A stretch of DNA of 64,000 bases from an uncultured Chloroflexia bacterium (GTDB lineage: Bacteria; Chloroflexota; Limnocylindria; Limnocylindrales; CSP1-4). A program made the translations under genes and the position numbers. Shown here piece after piece: positions 8,191 to 21,814 of the stretch. The notes beneath the pieces were generated by a model, which saw nothing but the letters and a program-made list of their open reading frames with translations, was not told the DNA's origin and searched no databases. The stretch lies in assembly GCA_963768655.1 (NCBI GenBank), contig CAVYIM010000004.1, positions 767,784 through 831,783 on the forward strand, read 5' to 3'. How positions within the stretch are numbered: the stretch's first letter is position 1; each line of letters begins with the position of its first letter.

Positions 8191-8271
8191 CCCGCCCGCC
8201 CTGACGCCCGGTGCGCCTCCGTGCCTCAGGACCCGGTACCATGCCGTCAGCGGCGCGACGGAGGAGGATCC

Positions 8272-9687
8272 ATGCGGCTCTGGGGCGGTCGGTTCGAAGG
8301 CACGACGGACGAGCGGGTGGCCGACTTCACCCGTTCGATCGAGCTCGACCGCGCGCTGGCGATCGACGACATCGCCGGCTCGATCGCCCATGTTCACGGG
8401 CTGGGGCGGGCCGGGCTGCTCGCGGACGACGAAGTGGCCACGATCGTCGCCGGCCTCGAAGGCCTGCGCGGCGAGGTAGAGACCGGCACGCTGGTCTGGG
8501 ACCCGGCGCTCGAGGACGTGCACATGAACCTGGAGGCGGCGCTGCGGGACCGAATCGGGCCCATCGCCGGACGCCTCCATACCGGACGATCCCGAAACGA
8601 CCAGGTCGCCACGGACCTGCGGCTCTGGCTGCGCCGCACGATCGATAACCTGGACGGGGCGATCCTGGACATGGAGCGGGCGCTCGTCGGCGTGGCGGTT
8701 CGTGACGGTGAGGCCGTCATGCCGGGCGCCACACACATCCAGCCGGCCCAGCCGGTGCTGCTGGCACATCACCTGCTGGCCTACGTCGAAATGCTCGAGC
8801 GCGACCGCGGTCGACTGGCGGACTGCCGGCGGCGGACCAACGTCTCGCCCCTGGGCTCGGGCGCTCTGGCGGGCGCGGGCTACCCGTTCGATCGCGAGAC
8901 GACGGCGAAGGAGCTCGGGTTCGAAGGCGTGACGGCCAACTCGCTCGACGCCGTAAGCGACCGGGACTTCGTCGTGGAGGCACTGGCCGCCATGGCGCTG
9001 TGCATGGTTCACCTGTCGCGGCTGGCCGAGGAGATCACCTGGTGGTCGAACCCGCGCTTCGGCTTCATCCGGGCGGCCGATTCGTTCTCGACGGGCTCGT
9101 CGATGATGCCGAACAAGAAGAACCCCGACCCGGCCGAGCTGGTGCGGGGCCGGGCGGCGCGCGTGATCGGGTCACTGACGGGGATGCTGGCGCTGCTGAA
9201 GGGGCTGCCGCTCGCGTATCAGCGCGATCTGCAGGAGGACAAGGCCCCGTTGTTCGAGTCGGCCGCGACGCTGGAGGCGTCGCTCGGCGTCATGGCCGGG
9301 ATGATCTCGACTCTGACCGTCGATCGCGAGCGGATGCGGGCCGCGGCCCAGGAGGGGTACGTCACTGCCACGGCCGTCGCCGACGCCCTCGTCCGGCGGG
9401 GAGTGGCTTTTCGGGCGGCCCACCATATCGTGGCCACGCTGGTCGCCGAAGCGGAGAGGGGCGGCGTCGGGCTCGAAGCGCTGGACGACGCCACGATCGC
9501 CGCGACGCTGGCCGCATCCGACGACGGCATGGCGGTCGCGATCGTGGGAGATGCCGCGCTCCCCGGGGAGCTGCGCGACGCCGCGGGGCTCGATGGCGCG
9601 CTGGCCGGCTGCGACGTCGTCGGCGGCACAGCGCCTCGTCGTGTGGCCGCGGCCCTGACCGCGGCGAGGGCTCGCCTGGGCGTGTAG
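8272..9687 (+). CDS. argH: Argininosuccinate lyase
   Basis: MRLWGGRF, LHTGRSRNDQVATD, GSSMMPNKKNPD; GGAGGAGG RBS. Confidence 0.97.
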   Translation: MRLWGGRFEGTTDERVADFTRSIELDRALAIDDIAGSIAHVHGLGRAGLLADDEVATIVAGLEGLRGEVETGTLVWDPALEDVHMNLEAALRDRIGPIAGRLHTGRSRNDQVATDLRLWLRRTIDNLDGAILDMERALVGVAVRDGEAVMPGATHIQPAQPVLLAHHLLAYVEMLERDRGRLADCRRRTNVSPLGSGALAGAGYPFDRETTAKELGFEGVTANSLDAVSDRDFVVEALAAMALCMVHLSRLAEEITWWSNPRFGFIRAADSFSTGSSMMPNKKNPDPAELVRGRAARVIGSLTGMLALLKGLPLAYQRDLQEDKAPLFESAATLEASLGVMAGMISTLTVDRERMRAAAQEGYVTATAVADALVRRGVAFRAAHHIVATLVAEAERGGVGLEALDDATIAATLAASDDGMAVAIVGDAALPGELRDAAGLDGALAGCDVVGGTAPRRVAAALTAARARLGV

Positions 9688-9937
9688 CCACGGCTGCGCG
9701 GGCCCGCGGTGACCGATCGCCGGCCCGATCGCCGGCAGGCCGCCTGACCGCTCGCCGGCAGGCCGCCTGGCCGCTCGCCAACCAGCCGGGCCGCTCGTTC
9801 GGCCGCCGGCGCCGCCATCGTCCCGATTTGTCACCGAATCTGCGCCGCTTCGATCTCGCATTCGGTGGCCGCACCGGCGTAGTCTGATGTCGCGCGGCAG
9901 GTGGGCCGCGGGTGCGCCGCGCCAGTCAGGTGGACGG

Positions 9938-10201
9938 ATGAAGCTGCACGAGTACGAGCCGGTCGAGGGAGAGTCCAAACCCCGCGCCGTGCACCGCGAG
10001 GGATCGTCTGTGCTGACCTGCGCCGCCTGCGGCTGCCGCCTCCTCGCCCGCGAATCTCTGCCGGACGGCGGCGGCTACGGCCCGGACGCGGCCTGGCGCC
10101 ATTACCACGGCAACACCCAGGAGACGGACGCCCGGGGCTGCCGGGTCGTGTGCGTTGATCGCCCGCACCGCACGATCCCGGTGGAGCAGCTCGCCTCCTA
10201 G
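9938..10201 (+). CDS. Hypothetical 87-aa Cys/His-rich protein (CxxCxC...H.H...CxxxC...H)
   Basis: Clean ORF with high GC3; upstream -10 TAGTCT at 9880-9885; no recognised family. Confidence 0.7.
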   Translation: MKLHEYEPVEGESKPRAVHREGSSVLTCAACGCRLLARESLPDGGGYGPDAAWRHYHGNTQETDARGCRVVCVDRPHRTIPVEQLAS

Positions 10202-10311
10202 CGCCACGCGCCGCGCCGCCACACGCCGCCACGCACCGGGCCGCCACGCCGGCACGCGCCCGGCCGCCACGCGCGCGCCGCGCCACACTGCCGGTCCCGC
10301 CACCCGAGCCC

Positions 10312-10399
10312 CGTCCTGAACGGCAACCGTCGCGCCACCGCAGCGCCACCGCCGGGTCACTCGACCGGTACTGATTCGGGCGAGCTCGCTACGTACGCT
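10312..10399 (+). promoter_or_regulatory. amt1 promoter with an 11-bp-periodic direct-repeat operator (copy 1 of 3)
   Basis: CGTCCTGAACG GCAAC-N6-GCCAC-N6-GCCAC-N6-GTCAC-N6-GGTAC TGATT; CTGATT-17 bp-TACGCT. Confidence 0.85.
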
Positions 10400-10458: not shown

Positions 10459-11700
10459 GTGAACCCCGCCTCGAGCGCCATCAACTCCGGCGACACCGCC
10501 TGGGTCCTGACCTCGGCCGCGCTCGTCATGCTCATGACGCCGGGCCTGGCTCTGTTCTATGGCGGCCTTGTCCGCCGCAAGAACGTGCTCAGCACGATCA
10601 TGCACAGCATCTTCATCCTCGCCCTGGTCAGCGTGACATGGGTTCTGGTCGGCTTCACGCTGGCCTTCGGCAAAGACGTGAACGGCTGGGGAATAATCGG
10701 CGGCCTCGACTTCGTCGGCCTGCGGGGCGTCGGCAAGGATCCGCTCACGCAATACGCGCCTAGCATTCCCGGTTCCGCCTTCATGGCCTTCCAGATGATG
10801 TTCGCCGTGATCACGCCGGCCCTCATCACCGGTGCCTTCGCCGAGCGCAAGCGCTTCAAGGCTTTCGTGCTGTTCTCGCTGCTGTGGACGCTCATCGTCT
10901 ATTCGCCGATCGCCCACTGGGTCTGGGGCGAAGGCGGTTGGCTCCGCAACCTGGGCGTCCTCGACTTCGCCGGCGGCACAGTCGTCCACATCAGCTCGGG
11001 TGTCGCGGCCCTCGTCGCCGCGCTGGTCCTTGGACCGCGGGTCAAGCGCGAGTCGGACCGCTTCGAGCCGCACGACGTCCGCCTGACGGTCATCGGCGCG
11101 GGCCTGCTCTGGTTCGGCTGGTTCGGCTTCAACGGCGGCTCCGCCCTGGCGGCCAACGGCACTGCCGCCAACGCGTTCGTCGTTACGAACACGGCCGCCG
11201 GCATGGCGGCCCTCACCTGGGTCACGATGAGCTGGCTGCACAAGGGCACGCCGAGCGTCGTGGGCGCCGTCGCGGGCGGCGTCGCCGGTCTCGTGGCCAT
11301 CACCCCCGCGTCGGGGTTTGTCGACGCGAGCGCCGCGATCATCATCGGCTTCGCGGCCGGTGCGGTCTGCTACAGCGCCATCCTGCTGCGCGAGCGGCTC
11401 AAGATCGACGACGCGCTCGATGTCTGGGCGGTCCACGGCGTCGGCGGCACGCTCGGCGCGATCCTGACGGGTGTATTCGCCGTGGCCGCGGTCGGCGGCG
11501 CGTCCGGCCTCGTCGACGGCAATCCCGGCCAGGTCGGAACGCAGCTGGTGGCTGTGGCCGCGACCTGGATCTACAGCGGCATCGCCACCTTCATCATCCT
11601 CAAGGTAGTCGACTTCTTCGTCGGGCTTCGCGTCGACGAGGCCGAAGAGGAAGCGGGCCTGGACTCCTCGCAGCATGGCGAGGTGGCCTGGCAGCTCTAG
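10459..11700 (+). CDS. amtB: Ammonium transporter (paralog 1)
   Basis: GDTAWVL, LMTPGLALFYGG, FQMMFA, DFAGGTVVH, LWFGWFGFN, DDALDVWAVHG, C-terminal EEAGLD. Confidence 0.97.
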   Translation: MNPASSAINSGDTAWVLTSAALVMLMTPGLALFYGGLVRRKNVLSTIMHSIFILALVSVTWVLVGFTLAFGKDVNGWGIIGGLDFVGLRGVGKDPLTQYAPSIPGSAFMAFQMMFAVITPALITGAFAERKRFKAFVLFSLLWTLIVYSPIAHWVWGEGGWLRNLGVLDFAGGTVVHISSGVAALVAALVLGPRVKRESDRFEPHDVRLTVIGAGLLWFGWFGFNGGSALAANGTAANAFVVTNTAAGMAALTWVTMSWLHKGTPSVVGAVAGGVAGLVAITPASGFVDASAAIIIGFAAGAVCYSAILLRERLKIDDALDVWAVHGVGGTLGAILTGVFAVAAVGGASGLVDGNPGQVGTQLVAVAATWIYSGIATFIILKVVDFFVGLRVDEAEEEAGLDSSQHGEVAWQL

Positions 11701-11837: not shown

Positions 11838-11925
11838 CGTCCCGAACGACAACCCTCGCGCCACCAGAGCGCCACCCGAGGGTCACTCGGTCGTAACTGA
11901 TTCCCGACGCCTCGCTCCATACGCT
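11838..11925 (+). promoter_or_regulatory. amt2 promoter with an 11-bp-periodic direct-repeat operator (copy 2 of 3)
   Basis: CGTCCCGAACG ACAAC-N6-GCCAC-N6-GCCAC-N6-GTCAC-N6-GTAAC TGATT; CTGATT-17 bp-TACGCT. Confidence 0.85.
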
Positions 11926-11984: not shown

Positions 11985-13211
11985 GTGATCAATGGTGGCG
12001 ACACCGCCTGGGTATTGACCGCCACGGCGCTGGTCATGTTGATGACGCCCGGTCTGGCCCTCTTCTACGGTGGCCTGGTCCGCCGCAAGAACGTCCTCAG
12101 CATCCTCATGCAGTGCATGTTCATCCTCGGCCTGGTCAGCGTGACCTGGGTGCTGGTCGGCTACACCCTGGCCTTCGGGCCGGACGTCAACGGCTGGGGC
12201 ATCATCGGCGGCCTGGACAACATCGGCCTCAAGGGCGTCGGTATCGCTCCGGGCCCGTACGCGGCGACCATCCCGGCGACCGCGTTCGCGCTGTTCCAGA
12301 TGATGTTCGCCATCATCACCCCGGCCCTGATCATCGGCGCCTTCGCCGAGCGCAAGCGCTTCAAGGCCTTCGTCCTCTTCGCCTTGCTGTGGAGCCTGCT
12401 CGTCTACTCGCCGATCTGCCACTGGGTCTGGGGCGAGGGCGGCTGGCTGCGCAACATGGGCGTGCTCGACTACGCCGGCGGCACGGTCGTCCACATCAGC
12501 TCCGGCGTCGCGGCCCTGGTGGCGGCGCTCGTCCTGGGCCCGCGCGTCCGGCGCGAGTCCGAGCGCTTCGAGCCCCACGACGTCCGGCTGACGGTCATCG
12601 GCGCCGGCATCCTGTGGTTCGGCTGGTTCGGCTTCAACGGCGGCTCGGCGCTCGCCGCGAACGGCCTCGCCGTCAATGCGGTCCTGGTGACGAACACCGC
12701 CGCCGGAATGGGCGCGCTGACCTGGATGACGATGAGCTGGCTGCACAAGGGTTCGCCGAGCGTCATCGGCGCCGTGTCGGGCGCGATCGCCGGCGAGGTC
12801 GGCATCACGCCGGCCTCCGGCTTCGTCGACCCAAGCTCCGCAATCCTGATCGGCTTCATCGCCGGCGTCGTCTGCTACAGCGCGATCCTGCTGCGCGAGC
12901 GCATGAAGATCGACGACGCCCTAGACGTCTGGGCTGTCCACGGTGTCGGGGGCACGCTGGGCGTCCTGCTCACCGGCGTCCTGGCGACGACCGCTGTGAA
13001 TACCGTGGGCCGGGGCTGGATCGACGGCAACTTCGGCCAGATCGGCATCCAGCTCGTCGCCATCGTCGCCGTGTGGGTCTACAGCGCGGTGGCGACCTTC
13101 GTGATACTCAAGCTCGTGGACGTGGCCGTGGGGCTCCGAGTCGGCGAGGCCGAGGAGGAGGCCGGGCTGGATGCCAGCCAGCACGGCGAGACGGTCGCCT
13201 TCCAGAACTGA
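11985..13211 (+). CDS. amtB: Ammonium transporter (paralog 2)
   Basis: Same Amt motifs as paralog 1; DYAGG and GAIAGEVGITP variants. Confidence 0.97.
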   Translation: MINGGDTAWVLTATALVMLMTPGLALFYGGLVRRKNVLSILMQCMFILGLVSVTWVLVGYTLAFGPDVNGWGIIGGLDNIGLKGVGIAPGPYAATIPATAFALFQMMFAIITPALIIGAFAERKRFKAFVLFALLWSLLVYSPICHWVWGEGGWLRNMGVLDYAGGTVVHISSGVAALVAALVLGPRVRRESERFEPHDVRLTVIGAGILWFGWFGFNGGSALAANGLAVNAVLVTNTAAGMGALTWMTMSWLHKGSPSVIGAVSGAIAGEVGITPASGFVDPSSAILIGFIAGVVCYSAILLRERMKIDDALDVWAVHGVGGTLGVLLTGVLATTAVNTVGRGWIDGNFGQIGIQLVAIVAVWVYSAVATFVILKLVDVAVGLRVGEAEEEAGLDASQHGETVAFQN

Positions 13212-13512: not shown

Positions 13513-13621
13513 AAGTGGGCTCGCGAATGCGCCGTGCCGTGGTCGCGCCGCCGTCGCGCCCGGGTCGCGCCGCCGTCGCGCCCGGGTCGCGGGTCCGCGC
13601 CTGGGTCGCGAACGGGCGAAA

Positions 13622-13709
13622 CGTCCCGAACGGCAACTGTCGTGTCACCGGAGCGTCACCGAAAGTCCACCCTCGCGCTACTGATTTGGGCCGACTCCTT
13701 CCATAGACT
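13622..13709 (+). promoter_or_regulatory. Promoter with the 11-bp-periodic operator (copy 3 of 3), upstream of a small ORF
   Basis: CGTCCCGAACG GCAAC-N6-GTCAC-N6-GTCAC-N6-TCCAC-N6-GCTAC TGATT; CTGATT-17 bp-TAGACT. Confidence 0.85.
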
Positions 13710-13764
13710 TCCAGTCAATGAAACGGGACCGAGGGTCCCAGAGCTCAGCCGAAGGAGCTAAGAA

Positions 13765-13848
13765 ATGATCGTCGCAGCCGCTTTCCTCAGTTTCGGTCTC
13801 CTGGTCGTGGCCTGGTTCGTCGCTCCGTCCCACGCGGCGGCCGAGTAG
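13765..13848 (+). CDS. Unannotated 27-aa hydrophobic peptide MIVAAAFLSFGLLVVAWFVAPSHAAAE
   Basis: Own promoter; GAAGGAG RBS 7 nt before the ATG (same SD as both amt genes); one TM-length hydrophobic stretch; downstream terminator; below the ORF-track length cutoff. Confidence 0.75.
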   Translation: MIVAAAFLSFGLLVVAWFVAPSHAAAE

Positions 13849-13931
13849 CAGCGGTCGTTTCCGCGGCCTCGACCGGTAGCAGTGCCGGTCTCCCGGGCGC
13901 CTCGCCTCTGACGCGCCACCCAACAGGCAAA

Positions 13932-13988
13932 CCCACACGCCGGCCCGCGCACCTTTTCGGCAGGTTGCGCGGGCTTCGTGTTTGTGGG
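13932..13988 (+). terminator. Intrinsic terminator closing the small-ORF transcript
   Basis: GCCCGCGCA-CCT...AGGT-TGCGCGGGC stem followed by TTCGTGTTTG. Confidence 0.7.
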
Positions 13989-14316
13989 CGGCGGGGGACC
14001 CCACGGAATCCGGAGGCGCGGCGCCAACCATCCCGTCATTTACCAACGGGGGCAGCACGAGAATGACTTCTCGGGCAAGATCGCGGACCCACCCAAATCC
14101 TGCGGCGACGTCAGGGCCTCCAGGTTCTGGGAGCCGCCGCTAGGTTCGCGGGCCGGCCGGGCCCCGCGCCGCCGCCCGATCGCGCCAGTGCCGCCGCCCC
14201 GGCGCCCGATCGCGCCAGTGCCGCCGCGCCGCGCCCGCGCCACGCGCCAGTGCCGCGCCCCACGCAACGCGCCGCCGCCCCGCCCCCCTGCCGCCCCCGC
14301 CGCTCGGCGCCGCGCG

Positions 14317-15030
14317 TTACTCCACGTCTTCGAGCCGGTAGCCCACGCCGCGGACCGAGGCCGGCACCGGCGCGCCGGACTCCTCCAGCTTGGAGCGCAG
14401 GCGTGCCAGATGAGGTTTGAGCCACTGCGGATCGGGGTTCGGCTCACCGGGCCAGCCCGCGGCGAGCAGCGAGCTGTGCGAGACCACGTGGCCGGCCGCG
14501 GCGACGAGCGAGGCGAGCAGGCTGTACTCGGTGCGGGTCAGGACGAGCTCCGCGCCGGCGACGGAGGCTGTGTGGCGGCCGCGGTCGAGGACGATCGAGC
14601 CCCACCGCAGCTCCCCGGCGCCGCGTGGCTCCGCCTCGTTGCCGCGTCGGCGCATCACGGCCCGGATGCGGGCCAGCAGCTCCTGCTTGCCGAACGGCTT
14701 GACCACGTAGTCGTCCGCGCCCGTGTCCAGCGCCTCGACCTTGGCGCGCTCGTCGGCCTCGCCCGTGAGGACGATGATCGGCGTCTGCGACATGCGCCGG
14801 ATAGCGCGGCAGACCTCGACGCCGTCGAGCCCGGGCATGGCCAGGTCCAACAGCACCAGGTCCGGGCGTTCCTCGGAGAAGCGGCGCAGCGCGGCGTTGC
14901 CGTCGTACGCGGTGACGACGCGATGTCCGGCGCGACCGACCAGGGCCGACACGGCGCCCACCATGGCCGGCTCGTCGTCGACGACGAGGATCAGCAGGCT
15001 CGCCTCCGTCACCGGACCCGTGGTGCTCAA
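14317..15030 (-). CDS. OmpR/PhoB-family response regulator (receiver + winged HTH)
   Basis: VVDDE, LLDLAMPGLDG (phospho-Asp), GADDYVVKPF, LTRTEY, HLARLRSKLE..VRGVGYRL. Confidence 0.95.
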   Translation of the reverse strand: MSTTGPVTEASLLILVVDDEPAMVGAVSALVGRAGHRVVTAYDGNAALRRFSEERPDLVLLDLAMPGLDGVEVCRAIRRMSQTPIIVLTGEADERAKVEALDTGADDYVVKPFGKQELLARIRAVMRRRGNEAEPRGAGELRWGSIVLDRGRHTASVAGAELVLTRTEYSLLASLVAAAGHVVSHSSLLAAGWPGEPNPDPQWLKPHLARLRSKLEESGAPVPASVRGVGYRLEDVE

Positions 15031-15078: not shown

Positions 15079-16509
15079 CTACCCGTCCGAGCCGGCCTCG
15101 GACATGACGCCGGCCTCGGGGCCGTCGCCGTCCCCCGAAGTGTCGCGCATCTCGGGCACCGCAACCATAAAGCGACTGCCGCCGTACCCATTTGATTCCA
15201 ACCAGACACGTCCGCCCATAGCGTTCATGAGCCGCCGGGCCGCGTAGAGCCCGATTCCGGAGCCTCTCGGTCGCGTCGCCGTCCGGACATACGCGTCGAA
15301 GACCGACTGCCATTCGGCCTCGGGGATCCCGGGCCCGTCGTCGGTGACGTAGATCCTGACTTCGCCATCCCCTCGCGATGCCCCGACGCTGACCGACCCG
15401 CCGTCGGGCGAATACTTCACCTCGTTCTCCAGCAGATGCTCCAGGACCTGGCGGAAGCGCCCCTCGTCGCCCACGCCCATCAGCTCCTCCCAGGTGCCGG
15501 TGCGGCGCAGCGGATGCTCTCGCAGCAGCGGCGACATCTCGCCGATCGTGTCGTTCACGGCGCGAGCGACGTCGAACGGGAGCCGCGCCAGACCCGCCGC
15601 CAGTCCCTCGCCGCGGACCGATGCCAGGATCGAATCCACCAGCCGATCCAGGCGCGTCACCTGCCCGATCGCCTGGCTGCGCCACTCTTCGACGAGCGTC
15701 GGGTCGGGCCCGGCGCCGCTGCCCGCAGCGTCGGCGGCCGCGTCCGACAGCAGATCCACATACGCCCGCACGACCGCCAGCGGCGTCCGCAGCTCGTGCG
15801 TCACGACCGCCAGCAGCTCGGCCCGGGCGCCGTCGAGAGCCGTGAGGGTCTGGAGCTGCTCTTCCGCCTCGGCCTGGAGCCGCCCTTTCTCGACGATGCC
15901 GCCCAGGAGCGCCCCGATCGTGACCAGGAACTCGACCTCCTCCGGGGAGAAGAGGCGGGTTTCGATCGCCTGGACGTTGATGACGCCGATGATCGTGTCG
16001 TTCCACGGCAGCGGCACCGAGAGCATCGAGACGAACTGCGACTGGTCGAAGCCGGGCACCCACTTGAAGCGCGGATCGACCCGAACGTCGGGCGAGGCGA
16101 CCGGCCGGCCGAGCATCGCGGCGCGACCCGTCAGGCCTTCGCCCAGGCCCAGCGTGACGCGTCCGATCTGATCGCGGTCGAGGCCGTTCGTGGCGGCCAG
16201 CCGAAGGCACGACTCGTCGCGCTCCATGAGGTAGACGGAGCAGACCTCGACGTCCAGGGCGGTCGTGGTTCGATCCACGATCGTCCGCATCAGCTCGTCC
16301 CAGTTGCGCGCCGTGGTGAGCAGCTTGGCGAACTCGTGCAGGAACTCGAGCTCGCGCAGCTTGCGCTCGGCGTCGAACGGCGCGTCGACCTTCGGGCCCG
16401 AGAGTCCGGTCGAGCCCGGAGGTCCTTCCGGCTCGAGTCCCTGAGCAGTGGCAGGTGCGGGCTCGGGTCGCGGGCCGCGCTCGCTTTGCTCGCCTTCGGG
16501 CCCGTTCAT
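15079..16509 (-). CDS. Soluble GAF-domain sensor histidine kinase
   Basis: GAF (VCSVYL...LAATNGL...GEGLTG...DPRFK...MLSVPL..IGVINVQ), H-box THELRTPL, N-box LLENEVKYS, DDGPGI, GSGIGL; no TM segment. Confidence 0.93.
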   Translation of the reverse strand: MNGPEGEQSERGPRPEPAPATAQGLEPEGPPGSTGLSGPKVDAPFDAERKLRELEFLHEFAKLLTTARNWDELMRTIVDRTTTALDVEVCSVYLMERDESCLRLAATNGLDRDQIGRVTLGLGEGLTGRAAMLGRPVASPDVRVDPRFKWVPGFDQSQFVSMLSVPLPWNDTIIGVINVQAIETRLFSPEEVEFLVTIGALLGGIVEKGRLQAEAEEQLQTLTALDGARAELLAVVTHELRTPLAVVRAYVDLLSDAAADAAGSGAGPDPTLVEEWRSQAIGQVTRLDRLVDSILASVRGEGLAAGLARLPFDVARAVNDTIGEMSPLLREHPLRRTGTWEELMGVGDEGRFRQVLEHLLENEVKYSPDGGSVSVGASRGDGEVRIYVTDDGPGIPEAEWQSVFDAYVRTATRPRGSGIGLYAARRLMNAMGGRVWLESNGYGGSRFMVAVPEMRDTSGDGDGPEAGVMSEAGSDG

Positions 16510-16511
16510 CG

Positions 16512-17798
16512 CTACCTCGCGGCCGTGGCCGGCGCGTCGTAGACCTTCGTCGGCAGCTCGGCGAGCAGCGGCTCGGTCCACGTCCAGGCCGCGCCGTAGT
16601 GGCGACCCACGGCCCCGTGCCGGGCCGCCTCCGTCCGCAGCGGAAGCCCGAAGATCTCGATGAACCCGACGGCGCTGGCGTGGTCGAAGGCATCGTCCGC
16701 GTCGTACGTCGCCAGAGCCTTGTCGTACAGGGAGAGCGGGCTGCGCCGGCCGACCACGATGGCGTTGCCGTGGTCGAGCCGGACCCGGACGTCGCCGCTG
16801 ACGACGCGCTGGCTGCTGGCGGCGTAGCCGCGCAGGTCGCGGTGCAGGGCGCTGAACCACAGCCCGTCGTAGGTGAGCTGGGCCAGCTCGTCGGCCACCG
16901 TGCGATTGAAGCGGAGCGTGTCCTTGGTGAGAGTCAGCCCCTCCAGGGCGCGGTGGGCCCGGTGGATGACCGTCGCGGCGGGCGCCTCGTAGATCTCGCG
17001 GCTCTTGATGCCGACCAGGCGGTCCTCGACGTGGTCCACGCGACCGACGCCGTGGGCGCAGGCGAGGTCGTGCAGCTTCTCGACCAGCACGACCGGATCG
17101 AGCCGCTCGCCGTCGAGAGACACGGGGACGCCGCCCTCGAAGCCGATCACGATCTCGACCGGATCGGGCGCCGCCTCAGGGTCGACGGTCCAGCGGTAGA
17201 CGTCCGCTCGTGGCGCCGTCCAGGGATCCTCGAGGATGCCGGCTTCGATGGAGCGACCCCACAGGTTCACGTCGATCGAGTAGATCGAGTCCTTCGTGAT
17301 GGTGATCTCGATGTTGCGGGCCTTCGCGTACTCGATCTCCTGCTCGCGGGACAGACCCATGCCGACGCGCATCGGGGCGATGACGGCCAGCGATGGATCG
17401 AGGGCGTGCGTCGCGACATCGAAGCGGACCTGGTCGTTGCCCTTGCCGGTGCAGCCGTGGGCGACCGCGTCGGCCCCTTCCTTGTGAGCGACCTCGACCA
17501 GGAGCTGGGCGATCATCGGCCGGGCCATGGCAGTGGCCAGGGGATACACGCCCTGGTAGAGCGCCCCGGCCTGGACGTGGGGCCAGCAGAAGTCGCGCAC
17601 GAAGCGCTCGCGGCCGTCGACGACGTAGGCCCGGCTGGCGCCGGCGCTGATGGCCCGGCGATCGACGTCCTCCTTGAGCACGCCGCCGCCGAGATCGACG
17701 GTCAGAGTGACCACCTCGACGTTGTACTGCTCGCGCAGCCAGGCGACGGCGACCGAGGTGTCGAGTCCACCGGAATAGGCGAGCACCACCTTGTTCAT
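16512..17798 (-). CDS. argG: Argininosuccinate synthase
   Basis: VLAYSGGLDTS, HGCTGKGNDQVRF, SIDVNLWGRSIE, GIKSREIYEAP. Confidence 0.97.
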   Translation of the reverse strand: MNKVVLAYSGGLDTSVAVAWLREQYNVEVVTLTVDLGGGVLKEDVDRRAISAGASRAYVVDGRERFVRDFCWPHVQAGALYQGVYPLATAMARPMIAQLLVEVAHKEGADAVAHGCTGKGNDQVRFDVATHALDPSLAVIAPMRVGMGLSREQEIEYAKARNIEITITKDSIYSIDVNLWGRSIEAGILEDPWTAPRADVYRWTVDPEAAPDPVEIVIGFEGGVPVSLDGERLDPVVLVEKLHDLACAHGVGRVDHVEDRLVGIKSREIYEAPAATVIHRAHRALEGLTLTKDTLRFNRTVADELAQLTYDGLWFSALHRDLRGYAASSQRVVSGDVRVRLDHGNAIVVGRRSPLSLYDKALATYDADDAFDHASAVGFIEIFGLPLRTEAARHGAVGRHYGAAWTWTEPLLAELPTKVYDAPATAAR

Positions 17799-18337
17799 CG
17801 AGGAGCCTCCGAGTGAACGAACAGTCGTGCGTTCGGCCCGGCCGACGCGTCCGACGATTGGAATGTCCCGAAGCGGATCAGCCACCGCTCGAGGGCGGCT
17901 TCGGTCTCGAACAGGACCAGCACGGTGTTGTCGCCCGCAAGGGTGCCGACCTGATCGGCCAGGCTCGACTGATCGATCGCCTGGGCGATCGCGCCGGCCG
18001 ACCCGGGCGTCGCCACGAGCACCAGGCTCAGGCCGCTGCGACCTATCTGGACGGGGATGTCAGCGAGCAGCCTGCGGAGCCGGGCGTCGTAGGCGTTTCC
18101 CGTGGCGGCCGTCTCCGGAGTAGCGTAGACGTGGCGGTCGCCGCGCGGCACCTTCACCAGGCCCATCTCCGCGGCGTCTCGGCTGACCGTCGCCTGGGTG
18201 ACCTCGAAGCCTCTCTCGCGGAGAAGCTCGACCAGCTCCTCCTGGCTCCCGATCGGCGAATGCGAGATCAGATCGAGCAGGGCGCGCTGCCGGCGCTGCT
18301 TGACGTTCGGCTGGCTGCCGTTGATGGCCATGATCAC
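17795..18337 (-). CDS. argR: Arginine repressor
   Basis: SQEELV..L...GFEVTQATVSRD, TPGSA, GTLAGDNT. Confidence 0.95.
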   Translation of the reverse strand: MIMAINGSQPNVKQRRQRALLDLISHSPIGSQEELVELLRERGFEVTQATVSRDAAEMGLVKVPRGDRHVYATPETAATGNAYDARLRRLLADIPVQIGRSGLSLVLVATPGSAGAIAQAIDQSSLADQVGTLAGDNTVLVLFETEAALERWLIRFGTFQSSDASAGPNARLFVHSEAPR

Positions 18338-18346
18338 GATCCGATC

Positions 18347-19168
18347 TCAGGCCGTCGCGGGGGTTTCGGTGGCGGCGGGCGCCGCGGGCGCTGCCAGAGT
18401 GGCATGCCCCGCCGTGATGCGCGTGCCGAACGCCGCATCGTGCAGTGCCCGGCTCAGGGCGTGCGGATCGCCGGAATCGCAGATGACGGCCTCGGCTCCG
18501 GGCCAGCTCACGGCCTGGAGCGCGGCCCTGATCTTGGGCACCATGCCGCCCTTGATCACGCCGTCGGCGATGAGCTGCTCGGCTTCGTCCGCGGTCATGG
18601 TGGCGAGCTTCCGACCCGCCGCGTCACGGATGCCGTCGACATCGGTCATCAGCACCAGCTGGCGGGCGCCCAGGCCGGCGGCTATCCCGGCTGCGGCGTC
18701 GTCGGCGTTGACGTTGCAGACGATGCCCTGCTCGTCGCGGGCGAGTGGAGCGACGACGGCCACCTCTCCGGCCACGAGCAGCGCGTCCAGGAAGTCGCGC
18801 CGCAGCCCCACGACATGGGCCACGAGCCCCAGGCCGGGCACGCGTTCGGCGATCATCAGGCCGCCGTCGACGCCCGAAAGGCCCACGGCGTCCACGCCGC
18901 GGTCGCGCAGGTCCGAAACGAGCTCCGAATTCACGACGCCCCGGAGCACGGCCGCGGCGACGTCCAGCGCCGCCTGGTCCGTGACCCGGAGGCCGCCCTC
19001 GAAGCGGCTGGGCACGCCCAGGCGCTCGAGCCATTCGGTGATCCGCTTTCCGCCGCCGTGGACGAGCACGACCGGCCGCTCGCGCGCGACCGAGGCGACC
19101 TCGTCGAGGACGTGCGCCTGGTCGGCCAGCGTCGTGCCGCCGAGCTTGAGGACGAGGACTTCGCTCAC
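18347..19168 (-). CDS. argB: Acetylglutamate kinase
   Basis: VLKLGG, VHGGG, GLRVTD, NVNAD, MTDVDG, GGMVPK; GTG start overlapping the argJ stop. Confidence 0.95.
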   Translation of the reverse strand: MSEVLVLKLGGTTLADQAHVLDEVASVARERPVVLVHGGGKRITEWLERLGVPSRFEGGLRVTDQAALDVAAAVLRGVVNSELVSDLRDRGVDAVGLSGVDGGLMIAERVPGLGLVAHVVGLRRDFLDALLVAGEVAVVAPLARDEQGIVCNVNADDAAAGIAAGLGARQLVLMTDVDGIRDAAGRKLATMTADEAEQLIADGVIKGGMVPKIRAALQAVSWPGAEAVICDSGDPHALSRALHDAAFGTRITAGHATLAAPAAPAATETPATA

Positions 19169-20604
19169 GTGGTGTACTCCGCGTTCTCGATGACGTAACC
19201 CTCGGTCAGGTCGCAGCCGAATGCCTCGCCGGATCCCTTGCCCAGGCCGAGGTCCAGGCGGATGAGCACCTCCGGCGCGTCCATCGCCTTTCGAACGGCC
19301 TCGCGGTCGAAGGGGAGGGGAGCGCCGGCGGCGAAGACCAGGCACCCGGCAATGCCGATGCTCAGCCGCTCCAGGTCGAACTCGGGTCCGCGGCCGGCGC
19401 GCGGCATGGCCTCGGTGTGGTGCAGGCCGGCCGCCTCGAGGAGCTCCTCGTCGGGCAGGCGGGCGTTTCCGGCGGCGCTGGCCACGCGTCCCCAGTTCGG
19501 GTCGCGGCCGTGGACAGCGGCCTTGAGGAGGCTGCTGGCGACGACGGAGCGGGCGACCGCCCGGGCGTCGTGATCGTCGACGGCGCCGCTGACCTGGCAC
19601 GTGATGAGGGTCGAGGCGCCCTCACCGTCGGCGGCCTGCTGGCGCGCCAGGGATCGCGCCACTGCTTCGATCGCCGCGCCGAGCGCGGCGGCTTCGGGGC
19701 TGGCCGTTGCCACGGGCCTCGCTCGGGCCGCGCCCGACGCGAGCAGGAAGACGGTGTCGTTGGTGCTCGTGTCGCCGTCGACGCTCAGTTGATTCCACGT
19801 CCGCTGGACTATTGGAGTGAGCAGCCCGAAGAGCGTGTCCGGCGCGGCTGTCGCGTCGGTCAGGATGACGCCCAGCATCGTGGCCATGCGGGGGTGGATC
19901 ATCCCCACGCCCTTGGCGATGCCGGAGACGGTCACCCGTACCGGCGAGCCATCCGGGCCGGGCAACTCGACGCAGGCCGTGGCGAGCTTGATCTTCGTGT
20001 CGGTGGTCATCATCGCCCCCGCCACGGCCGCGAGGGCTTCGGCTGTCGCGGCGAGCTGCGGGACCAGCCGCGCGATCCCGTCGCGGATCTTCACCGTGGG
20101 CAGCCGTACGCCGATGACGCCAGTGGAGAGTGCAAGGGTCCGTTCGGCTCGCGTCCCGAGCGCGGCAGCGACCGCCTTGCAGACCTCGGCTTGATCGGTG
20201 TCTCCTTCCACGCCCGTGGCCGCGTTCGCTGCGCCGGCCGTCACGACGATCGCGTCCGCCCAGCCGAATCGGCCGCCGCCGCCGATCTCGGTGGCGTTGA
20301 GGTGGGCCTGAGAGACGCGGATGGGAGCCGCCACGACCTGGTTGCGGGTGAAGACGGCGGCCGCGGCCGCGGGCCCGCGGAGAGTGGCGATTATTCCCAG
20401 ATCCGGGCGCCCCGAGGCCTTGATGCCGGCGGCCGCGGCGCCGGCCCGGAAGCCGCCGGGCAGCACGGCCCGCTCTTCGATCGGCGGCAGCGCGACAGGA
20501 AGAGCCTCGAGAGCGGCGAGGTGGCCGTCTCCGGTGGCGCTGGACACGGCGCCGGACACCGGGCCGCCAACCGGGGCCGAAGGATCGAGTGCTCCGGGTT
20601 GCAT
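19165..20604 (-). CDS. argJ: Ornithine acetyltransferase / N-acetylglutamate synthase
   Basis: MTTDT, AKGVGMIHPRMATML, VDGDTSTNDT, DPNWGR, GCDLT.GYVIENAEYTT. Confidence 0.96.
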   Translation of the reverse strand: MQPGALDPSAPVGGPVSGAVSSATGDGHLAALEALPVALPPIEERAVLPGGFRAGAAAAGIKASGRPDLGIIATLRGPAAAAAVFTRNQVVAAPIRVSQAHLNATEIGGGGRFGWADAIVVTAGAANAATGVEGDTDQAEVCKAVAAALGTRAERTLALSTGVIGVRLPTVKIRDGIARLVPQLAATAEALAAVAGAMMTTDTKIKLATACVELPGPDGSPVRVTVSGIAKGVGMIHPRMATMLGVILTDATAAPDTLFGLLTPIVQRTWNQLSVDGDTSTNDTVFLLASGAARARPVATASPEAAALGAAIEAVARSLARQQAADGEGASTLITCQVSGAVDDHDARAVARSVVASSLLKAAVHGRDPNWGRVASAAGNARLPDEELLEAAGLHHTEAMPRAGRGPEFDLERLSIGIAGCLVFAAGAPLPFDREAVRKAMDAPEVLIRLDLGLGKGSGEAFGCDLTEGYVIENAEYTT

Positions 20605-20644
20605 GGGCTGTAGCTTCCTTACGCTCGGCGCGGCTGCGGCGTGG

Positions 20645-21814
20645 CTAGGGTGCGATCGGGTACTGTTCGAGCCCCGTTGTCTCGGGCAGGCCGAAGAGGA
20701 CGTTGAGGGCCTGGACCGCCTGCCCGGCCGCCCCCTTGACCAGGTTGTCGATGACGCCCAGCGCCAGGATGCGGCCGCTGCGCGGATCGACCCGGCACCA
20801 CACCCGGCACATGTTGCTGCCATAGACGTGCTTGGTGGCCGGCGGATCGGTGACGACCTGGACGAACGGCTCGTCGCGATAGGCCTCCGCGTACAGCGCG
20901 TCCAGCTCCGCCTGGGTGACGGGGCGGGTCGGCCGCACATGGCAGCTGACGAGGATTCCACGCGTCATCGGAATGAGGTGCGGCAGGAAATCAACCACGG
21001 CTACGCCCGGGTTGGCGTCGCGGCTGCCGAGCGCGCCGCGCTCTCCCTGCTGCTGGAGCTCCTGCTCCATCTCGGCGGTGTGGCGGTGGGTGAACATGCC
21101 GTAGGCCTTGACGCTCTCGTTGATCTCGGAGAAGAGCAGATCGGGCTTGGGCTCGCGGCCCGCCCCCGACACCCCGCTCTTGGCATCGACTGCGAGATCG
21201 CCGATCAGCCCGGCCCGGGCCAGCGGGGCGAGGGTCAGGATCGTCGCGGTCGGGTAGCAGCCGGGCAGCCCGATGACGCTCGAATTCTGCTCGGCGGCGG
21301 CGCGGATCTCCTCCCGGTGCAACTCCGGGAGGCCGTATACGGCCCGAGCCAGGAGCTCGGGCGCTGGATGGTCGAGCTTGTACCAGCGCGGATAGTCGGC
21401 CGGATCGTGGAGCCGGAAGTCCGGCCCGACGTCCAGCAGGGCGGAGCCGCGGGCCGTGATCTCGGCGGCCATCTCGGCGGCCACGCCGTGCGGCAGCGCT
21501 GTGAAGATGGCGTCGGCCTCGGGCATGGCCGCATCGATGACCAGGCCCGATGCGGCGAGGTGCGGATGAGACTCCGCGATCGAGACGTTGTCGCGGTTGC
21601 GGCCGTACAGGCCTGCCAGCCGGACGCGCGGGTGGTTCAGCAGCAGCCGAACCAGCTCGCCGCCTGCATAGCCGGTGGCGCCGACGATGCCGACGGTGAT
21701 CGTCCGGCTGCCCTGTCGAGCGCGGACCGTGCGAGCCCCCAGCGAGGCAGGCGCAGGCTTCTTCCCGGAGCTGGCTGTCGAAACGCCGTCGGGCGTGGGT
21801 CTGGTGGAGGTCAT
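20645..21814 (-). CDS. argC: N-acetyl-gamma-glutamyl-phosphate reductase
   Basis: GATGYAGGEL, YGLPEL, PGCYPT, SGVSGAGR, DNLVKGAAGQA. Confidence 0.96.
   Translation of the reverse strand: MTSTRPTPDGVSTASSGKKPAPASLGARTVRARQGSRTITVGIVGATGYAGGELVRLLLNHPRVRLAGLYGRNRDNVSIAESHPHLAASGLVIDAAMPEADAIFTALPHGVAAEMAAEITARGSALLDVGPDFRLHDPADYPRWYKLDHPAPELLARAVYGLPELHREEIRAAAEQNSSVIGLPGCYPTATILTLAPLARAGLIGDLAVDAKSGVSGAGREPKPDLLFSEINESVKAYGMFTHRHTAEMEQELQQQGERGALGSRDANPGVAVVDFLPHLIPMTRGILVSCHVRPTRPVTQAELDALYAEAYRDEPFVQVVTDPPATKHVYGSNMCRVWCRVDPRSGRILALGVIDNLVKGAAGQAVQALNVLFGLPETTGLEQYPIAP

Follow-up and report, generated by a model that had tools for sequence, protein, structure and literature searches.

In the present study, we analysed a micro-protein gene that stands beside two ammonium transporter genes in a window of 64,000 nucleotides (the whole stretch of DNA under study, to which all coordinates refer) from an uncultured Chloroflexia bacterium of the order Limnocylindrales (GenBank assembly GCA_963768655.1, contig CAVYIM010000004.1). 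The gene consists of 27 codons and a stop on the plus strand (ATG 13765 to TAG 13848) and encodes the peptide MIVAAAFLSFGLLVVAWFVAPSHAAAE, for which a single transmembrane helix and a short C-terminal tail are predicted. It sits with its own signals in a 1.1-kb gap between the ammonium transporter gene amt2 (11985-13211, plus strand), which is directly upstream, and a response-regulator gene. The product of amt2 (Pfam PF00909, E 6.5e-129) is the likely partner of the peptide, and that of the paralogue amt1 (10459-11700, plus strand; PF00909, E 1.2e-130) is a second possible partner. The original prediction for this place, made from the letters of the DNA, had listed a promoter copy, a hairpin, a Shine-Dalgarno (SD) sequence, an open reading frame (ORF) and a terminator, and all of these elements are present at the predicted positions. 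Our results indicate that the ORF is a real gene tied to one clade of Amt proteins, and suggest that its product may be an accessory subunit of these transporters. The window DNA has 67% GC, the source assembly has 3.37 Mb and is 88.6% complete, and the closest relatives in a named collection are metagenome-assembled genomes (MAGs) of Chloroflexi or Candidatus Limnocylindrales from peat and soil.

Results

We regard it as practically certain that the ORF is a real gene, because of its substitution pattern. Among the genus loci, the mean pairwise difference at codon positions 1, 2 and 3 was 0.19, 0.18 and 0.39. The Nei-Gojobori method, applied to 190 pairs, gave for the helix a median nonsynonymous rate (dN) of 0.125 and a median synonymous rate (dS) of 0.661, i.e., a dN/dS of about 0.19, and for the five-residue tail a dN of 0.665 and a dS of 0.824 (dN/dS about 0.8). 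On these values the helix appears to be under purifying selection and the tail nearly free to vary within the genus. An open frame alone means little here, and two of the five other frames are also open in at least 17 of the 20 genus loci. The frame is intact with the SD in place in all 20 genus loci that were fetched; the start codon is ATG in 15, GTG in four and TTG in one, and the length is 26-27 codons in 19 and 39 codons in one. A second collection, whose genomes partly overlap the first set, gave 38 intact loci of the genus type out of 38, and the loss of the ORF in orthologous loci, an outcome that the original prediction had allowed for, was seen in neither set. Of 24 further genomes in the genus, 23 gave a match to the region in a DNA search; the 16 sister-family genomes that were searched gave none. 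The ORF has an amt-like base composition at the three codon positions (GC1/2/3 of 0.70/0.48/0.81), and the peptide has 22 uncharged residues with a mean Kyte-Doolittle value of 2.5 over residues 1-20. A few entries of 27 amino acids (aa) in public protein collections are identical to the peptide or nearly so, and these are unnamed or called 'hypothetical protein'. Two antisense ORFs (13678-14058 and 13758-14039) were rejected as high-GC artefacts, as the forward frame has its maximum of variation at the third codon position and indels are frequent in the 3' region. A remnant of a third amt copy was also considered and rejected; the peptide has no likeness to Amt N-termini, and in distant relatives the ORF lies inside amt operons.

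Upstream of the gene, a promoter-like module (copy 3, 13629-13709) aligns with one ahead of amt1 (copy 1, 10319-10399) and one ahead of amt2 (copy 2, 11845-11925), all on the plus strand and with a mean column identity of 75%. In copy 3, direct repeats with a period of about 11 bp (GGCAAC at 13632-13637, GTCACC at 13644-13649 and again at 13655-13660, TCCACC at 13666-13671) are followed by ACTGAT (13680-13685), an 18-nt spacer and TAGACT (13704-13709). The architecture common to the three copies, namely four G(C/T)CAC(C) repeats at about 11 bp, ACTGAT, 17-18 nt and TA(C/G)(G/A)CT, gave exactly three matches in a genome-wide pattern search of the 3.37-Mb assembly, those at amt1, amt2 and the small ORF, which bears out the prediction of a regulatory module common to both amt genes. 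The core of the module is kept, near-invariant, in 20 of 20 genus loci. A scan for consensus sigma-70 promoters gave no match at the module, and it is from its position and conservation that we infer a promoter. In distant lineages (loci L073, 1600-1700, and L086, 120-150), the direct-repeat module is absent upstream of the operons of amt and the small ORF and palindromes of the TGCAC/GTGCA type are found there, which suggests that another regulator controls the gene pair there.

Directly upstream of the ribosome binding site, the 5' untranslated region (UTR) has a stem-loop, GGGACC-GAG-GGUCCC (13725-13739, plus strand), and folds at -17.1 kcal/mol with a z-score of -3.0 relative to shuffles. 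This hairpin, in the form GGGA...UCC(C/U), is found in 30 of 32 distinct genus sequences, and its fifth pair is C-G in 15, U-A in nine, U-G in two and unpaired in four. Read on the minus strand (13740-13724), the hairpin together with TTTCATT scores as terminator-like, which may be chance. The SD sequence GAAGGAG (13751-13757, plus strand) stands 7 nt before the ATG, inside a 15-nt block, UCAGCCGAAGGAGCC, that is near-invariant in the alignment of the 32 sequences; among the 20 genus loci it reads GAAGGAG in 19 and TAAGGAGG in the remaining one. About 90 nt past the stop codon begins an intrinsic-terminator-like hairpin with a U-rich tail, GCCCGCGCACC...GGUUGCGCGGGC (plus strand, stem-loop 13942-13975, tail to 13985), with a folding energy of -28 kcal/mol and a z-score of -2.67. 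Its stem core and 7-nt loop hardly vary (3 of the 20 genus loci have single base changes), its outermost pair covaries between G-C and A-U, and the whole hairpin, which occurs once in the genome, is more conserved than the synonymous sites of the ORF. An anti-SD role of the invariant loop was rejected, as duplexes of the loop with the three SD regions were no better than those of shuffled loops (109 to 418 of 500 were as low). Of the structured 3' region that had been predicted, the terminator stands; the stretch from the stop codon to the terminator varies in sequence and length among relatives and is full of indels, and the fold of the 273-nt transcript as a whole is not superior to those of shuffled sequences (z -1.2). 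With Rfam 15, two tRNAs were the only matches in the window at the gathering score, and a search of 13600-14100 at E up to 1 gave nothing meaningful.

The peptide represents a protein family that has no name. Searched against Pfam and NCBIfam, it matched no family at E up to 10, apart from a chance Pfam match of 0.38; none of 28 relatives exceeded any curated cut-off in these collections at E up to 1, and a sequence-profile search of PDB gave nothing at E <= 1. Two MAGs labelled as Thermomicrobiales carry longer homologues of 44 and 50 aa, which start 25-38 nt past the amt stop codon. A word-based homologue search with the 44-aa relative returned three proteins only, and a profile search of 1.84 billion representative proteins returned 55 matches at E <= 0.001, consisting of 53 proteins of 27-79 aa and two repeat artefacts. 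This search was unrestricted in length, and no fused form of Amt and peptide was among its 55 matches, the two long ones being the artefacts. Members of the family are predicted single-pass proteins of 27-50 aa with the motif M-x3-A-F-x2-F-x2-L-V-x2-W-x2-A-P followed by a variable tail, and where they are named at all the name is 'hypothetical protein'. A hidden Markov model (HMM) of the family matched 50 of 401 Chloroflexota genomes at E <= 0.01, and the matches per genome reach E 1e-11 to 1e-17. The KdpF family models of NCBIfam and Pfam gave no sequence match. Among type I toxin models the best was HokA, with 15.7 bits in one relative against a cut-off of 89, and the fixed amt neighbour also argues against such an identity.

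This family is tied to amt by gene order. All 20 genus loci have an amt gene on the same strand ahead of the small ORF, and only 10 of them keep the gene pair downstream. Outside the genus, amt is adjacent in 18 of the 23 best HMM loci (17 directly upstream on the same strand, one downstream), usually at a distance of 15-60 nt, and five further amt-adjacent loci were validated by coordinates. In the phylum sample, the small ORF is directly 3' of amt in 30 validated genomes and in 10 more that were found by inspection. For this inspection, 20 amt loci were fetched from genomes without a family-HMM match next to amt (one of these genomes, G482, has one weak match elsewhere that was judged false). 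Fourteen of the 20 loci have an Amt of the same clade, with 62-71% identity to amt1, and 10 of the 14 carry a divergent small ORF with a W-x3-P motif directly past amt; when 177 downstream segments were ranked by their HMM scores, these 10 took the first 10 places (E 5.6e-5 to 0.08, the next at 0.45). The small ORF was present in none of the six loci with an Amt of another clade. The family HMM overlooks many members.

The same association was seen in a tree of 66 Amt proteins (IQ-TREE quick search, LG+C20+F+G4, rows from tblastn segments). All 33 Amts from small-ORF loci fell within one clade of 37 rows, with a support of 98 in the Shimodaira-Hasegawa-like approximate likelihood ratio test (SH-aLRT); amt1 and amt2 are both inside the clade, and none of the 22 GlnK-linked Amts is. 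Four rows labelled as having no small ORF are also in the clade, and one of them, L126, proved to carry it.

The slot directly 3' of amt is also that of glnK, the gene of the P-II protein GlnK. The P-II domain PF00543 was not found in the genome under study, and a search of 51 genus genomes, of which 20 are at least 90% complete, also found none; the control was positive in 13 of 14 reference genomes. In the taxonomic family, P-II was found in only 4 of 121 genomes, and it is rare also in the genera without the small ORF. In two loci of this family with P-II (L074, L075), glnK is directly 3' of a different amt (47% identity), and the small ORF occupies the same slot as glnK does there and in 20 further GlnK-linked loci. 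In the phylum sample of 401 Chloroflexota genomes, amt was found in 290 and a P-II match in 142, and 163 of the 290 with amt lack such a match at E <= 0.001. The sample includes genomes flagged as unpublished (G288, G417, G467, G507 and G574), none of which is among the validated small-ORF genomes. A strong P-II match (E <= 1e-15) was seen in none of the 30 validated small-ORF genomes, two of which have a weak one, vs 102 of the other 260 amt-bearing genomes, a class that still contains undetected small ORFs; the Fisher p of about 1e-6 treats relatives as independent and is therefore overstated. Among the 10 genomes found by inspection, P-II is strong in two (G375, G496) and moderate in one (G554), so that, of the 40 small-ORF genomes validated in all, 2 have strong P-II. 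Exclusion at the genome level is a tendency and is not absolute; at the locus level, no amt with both partners was found in the loci examined. Most simply, the small ORF and glnK would each go with an Amt clade of their own. Genera of the family that have amt with neither partner also occur: in G072 (locus L108) the response-regulator gene abuts amt, and in G076 a glutamate-synthase-like gene lies past amt. The peptide itself, with 27 aa and no P-II domain, is not a P-II protein, which has about 112 aa with a T-loop.

Conservation along the helix columns peaks at exactly 100 degrees per residue, a power reached by 2 of 5000 shuffles, and the conserved face is made up, in family numbering, of A5/F6, F9, L12/V13, W16 and A19/P20. 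For co-folding, we used the Amt of L073 (410 aa, 24-row alignment) and its 44-aa neighbour (46-row alignment), as the 27-aa peptide of the window is below the 30-residue minimum. The interface score ipSAE had a median of 0.76 (runs of 0.25, 0.76 and 0.81) vs 0.00 for the best of three controls; among solved complexes, 58 of 80 attain this mark, as do 2 of 110 mismatched pairs, counts that are only rough as custom alignments were used. In the best run, peptide residues 1-2, 4-5, 8-9, 12, 15-16 and 19-22, which correspond to the conserved face, contact Amt residues 243-259, 283-292, 335 and 349. The nearest solved Amt by alignment is Archaeoglobus Amt-1 (2B2F), and we take these contacts to be the inner (cytoplasmic) half of transmembrane helix M7 and the outer half of M9, on helix boundaries that we assume. 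Amt proteins have their N-terminus outside and their C-terminus inside, and because of this topology the model would place the peptide in the same orientation, with which an Arg or Lys just past the helix agrees. The co-fold supports binding to Amt without showing it, and it passed its controls; together with the position directly 3' of amt in the 30 validated and 10 inspected genomes, this upholds the link to Amt that had been proposed.

Past the unit, two genes on the minus strand encode an OmpR-type response regulator (14317-15030; Pfam Response_reg and Trans_reg_C, with a weak, sub-threshold match to GlnR_1st) and a GAF histidine kinase (15079-16860, by Pfam). Both genes are convergent to the amt island, and they form the pair found downstream in 10 of the 20 genus loci. 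The OmpR-type regulator is a candidate controller of the regulon of amt and the small ORF, because of the gene adjacency and of the four direct repeats with 11-bp spacing in all three modules. Arginine-biosynthesis genes identified by Pfam stand on either side of the island of amt, small ORF and two-component genes, with an argininosuccinate lyase gene in the upstream flank (8221-9687) and genes for argininosuccinate synthase, an amino-acid kinase and ArgJ on the minus strand in the downstream flank (16512-20961). GC-rich tandem repeats with periods of 11-30 at four sites (9718-9815, 10202-10284, 13530-13610 and 14164-14281) border the promoter modules and the terminator of the island. Upstream of amt1, an ORF of 104 codons (9887-10201, plus strand) encodes a predicted Cys-rich protein (CxxC ... 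C) that has no Pfam match.

Discussion

KdpF, AcrZ and the MgtS/MgtR-type proteins are single-pass micro-proteins that bind transporters. The peptide described here resembles this class in having fewer than 50 aa and one hydrophobic helix, with its gene in or beside a transporter operon across taxa; judged from the DNA, it would also be co-expressed with the transporter and has one conserved helix face. It is unlike them in sequence, with no Pfam or NCBIfam match, and in its partner, which would be the Amt channel and whose binding is only modelled (ipSAE 0.76 vs 0.00). It shares with GlnK the gene position immediately 3' of amt and the tie to particular Amt clades, and GlnK and the small ORF are almost never found in one genome of the Chloroflexota sample and never in one of the loci examined. 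In the available part of a review of Amt proteins, GlnK is described as a soluble trimeric sensor of 112 aa whose T-loop plugs the cytoplasmic exit, and P-II is the only protein partner of Amt named there (PMC10710835). The peptide differs from GlnK in being a predicted membrane helix of 27 aa that lacks both a PF00543 domain and a plausible site for a ligand. The small protein sP36 of Methanosarcina mazei, as far as its accessible description goes, has 61 aa, is cytoplasmic, moves to the membrane on nitrogen upshift, acts via GlnK1 and is reported to bind AmtB1 (PMC10714827). Both are small proteins with a proposed Amt link, sP36 itself being one of nitrogen metabolism; that same description sets sP36 apart from a predicted integral membrane helix in P-II-negative organisms. 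In the open-access literature that was searched, no membrane micro-protein partner of Amt was found, and sP36 and P-II were the only partners.

Another comparison is offered by the Rh proteins. In the portions of two reports available to us, the M0 (TM0) helix of human RhCG is an extra, twelfth helix on the 11-helix Amt/Rh core, located at the membrane-facing monomer junction and proposed to stabilise the trimer, and this junction is a lipid site in AmtB and NeRh50 (PMC10794816; bioRxiv 10.64898/2026.09.17.752382). According to the same portions, the junction of NeRh50 forms a membrane-facing cleft between M2/M4 of one subunit and M6/M7 of the next, and the equivalent region of AmtB binds functionally important lipids and is masked by the fused M0 in human RhCG (bioRxiv 10.64898/2026.09.17.752382; PMC10794816). 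The peptide would likewise be an extra helix beside the Amt core, as the model places it on M7 and M9, and M7 lines the cleft described for NeRh50. Unlike M0, which is fused to the N-terminus of the transporter, the peptide is the product of a distinct ORF that has an SD to itself; in the window, the Amt proteins begin at Pfam position 1.

The comparison of sequences and gene neighbourhoods gives good support to a functional partnership between the micro-protein and this Amt clade. As to the nature of this partnership, we consider that the peptide is probably a membrane-embedded accessory subunit that binds the Amt of its clade, a reading that leans on the co-fold model and to which we give a probability of about 60%. 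The helix would insert with its N-terminus outside and its C-terminus inside, and its conserved face would pack on membrane-exposed Amt helices, namely on M7 in its cytoplasmic half and on M9 in its outer half. The peptide would then act as a stoichiometric subunit with a stabilising or tuning effect on the transporter, comparable to that of KdpF, AcrZ or the fused M0 helix of Rh proteins. In most lineages the small ORF would be co-transcribed with amt, and in this genus its own copy of the amt promoter module would switch on one peptide gene together with both amt paralogues. Perhaps this copy is what lets one peptide gene serve two paralogues. A separate observation concerns one species of the genus, G023 (L150, G023:C5:19600-20110), which has a second, divergent small ORF of 32 aa, MLIAAFASFAALVAVWVMVPSS..., 41 nt past amt1, and hence two copies, one behind each amt. 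A bolder proposal, which we hold only tentatively and consider doubtful, is that one Amt clade is a two-gene channel, in which a separate twelfth helix lies in the lipid-facing M7/M9 groove by the monomer junction and sets activity or stability; P-II-less bacteria would thereby gain a GlnK-independent control of uptake, with the peptide dosed from a copy of the amt promoter.

Several points weigh against the accessory-subunit reading. Collecting the members with an HMM favours conserved columns, though not their periodicity. Agreement between the co-fold runs is at least 0% of contacts, one of the three runs scored 0.25, and the predicted local distance difference test (pLDDT) of the partner is at least 52. 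The model also contains one Amt monomer, the native form being a trimer in which the accessibility of M7 and M9 is assumed. The 18 interface positions, considered jointly, show no more clade-specific conservation than random positions do, as 1592 of 10000 random sets reach their value. The most confident contacts, the M7 residues M243, L246, T247 and T250, are fixed in 29-34 of the 34 Amts of the small-ORF clade and variable in 16 GlnK-linked Amts, as would be expected of a lipid-exposed face that acquired a partner, and this observation on four residues is post hoc. With regard to the gene order, 5 of the 23 HMM matches outside the genus are not beside amt, some of them on short contigs. Three Amts of the clade have no small ORF (L113, L115 and L122), and amt also occurs without it elsewhere in the family, in other genera, so that the partner would be dispensable in some lineages.

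Among the other explanations, the one in which the ORF is no functional gene, but a frame left open by chance in GC-rich intergenic sequence or a remnant in decay, is strongly disfavoured and receives hardly any weight. High-GC DNA does keep frames open, as the two alternative frames show, and most annotation pipelines skip the ORF; but start, stop, SD and length are kept in all 20 loci, purifying selection is specific to the frame of the ORF, and homologues across the phylum have the same gene neighbour. The third-position bias and the low dN/dS confirm the micro-protein gene that had been predicted. We also consider it very improbable that the transcript of about 270 nt is mainly or additionally a regulatory RNA in which the ORF is secondary. 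This idea draws on the terminator hairpin, whose loop is conserved with it, and on the 15-nt SD block, both more conserved than the synonymous sites of the ORF, and on one covarying pair in the 5' hairpin. Against it, the codon-position pattern and dN/dS point to selection on the peptide, and in most lineages the ORF lies inside the amt operon without this UTR or terminator. The absence of an Rfam family, the ordinary fold of the whole transcript and the shuffled-level complementarity of loop and SD regions tell in the same direction, and the dual-function small RNA of the original prediction finds no backing in them. A peptide that is co-regulated with amt and has another membrane target, such as the neighbouring GAF kinase (in the way that MgrB acts on PhoQ) or general membrane stress, is improbable. 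Small single-pass regulators of kinases, such as MgrB and SafA, are known, and the regulator and kinase genes lie convergently downstream in half of the genus loci, with the regulator gene also beside amt in another genus. The synteny, however, tracks amt (20/20) and not the kinase pair (10/20), no kinase is kept in the distant loci examined, and the co-fold with Amt passed, the unrelated large-protein control giving 0.00.

The reading closest to the accessory subunit is that the micro-protein is a functional GlnK substitute, which would shut or gate Amt after an ammonium upshift in P-II-less bacteria. The gene slot speaks for it, as do the lack of P-II in all 51 genus genomes, the contrast between 0/30 and 102/260 genomes with strong P-II, contrasts within lineages (e.g., G370 vs G510 of one genus) and the modelled C-terminus, which would point to the cytoplasmic face where GlnK docks. 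A helix of 27 aa, however, has no domain for sensing 2-oxoglutarate, ATP or glutamine, and its tail of about five residues is almost neutral in the genus. The shared promoter or operon suggests expression with Amt and not against it. P-II is rare throughout the family (4/121), also in genera without the small ORF, and G375 and G496 have strong P-II together with an amt linked to the small ORF, so that one partner per Amt clade explains the exclusion more simply. We thus regard a GlnK-like regulatory role as possible but less likely than an accessory subunit, and a full substitution as unlikely. Of the proposal that the peptide takes the place of glnK, the positional part holds, with the same slot and no P-II in the genus; functional replacement does not, given the missing sensing domain, the family genera with neither partner and the two genomes with both. 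The lack of a sensing domain also leaves the suggested inhibitor role unsupported.

Conclusion

Amt/Mep/Rh channels are universal, and their sole well-established protein partner is the P-II protein GlnK. The 163 of 290 amt-bearing Chloroflexota genomes without a recognisable P-II raise the question of how ammonium uptake is controlled in these bacteria. A clade-specific micro-protein in the glnK slot is a concrete candidate that is cheap to test, as a 27-mer can be synthesised. It is also an example of a conserved gene that gene callers systematically miss in this phylum. If the accessory-subunit reading is true, Amt would join the transporters that have single-helix subunits, and a connection of the peptide is suggested both with the M0 helix of the Rh proteins, itself unexplained, and with the lipid site through which AmtB is tuned.

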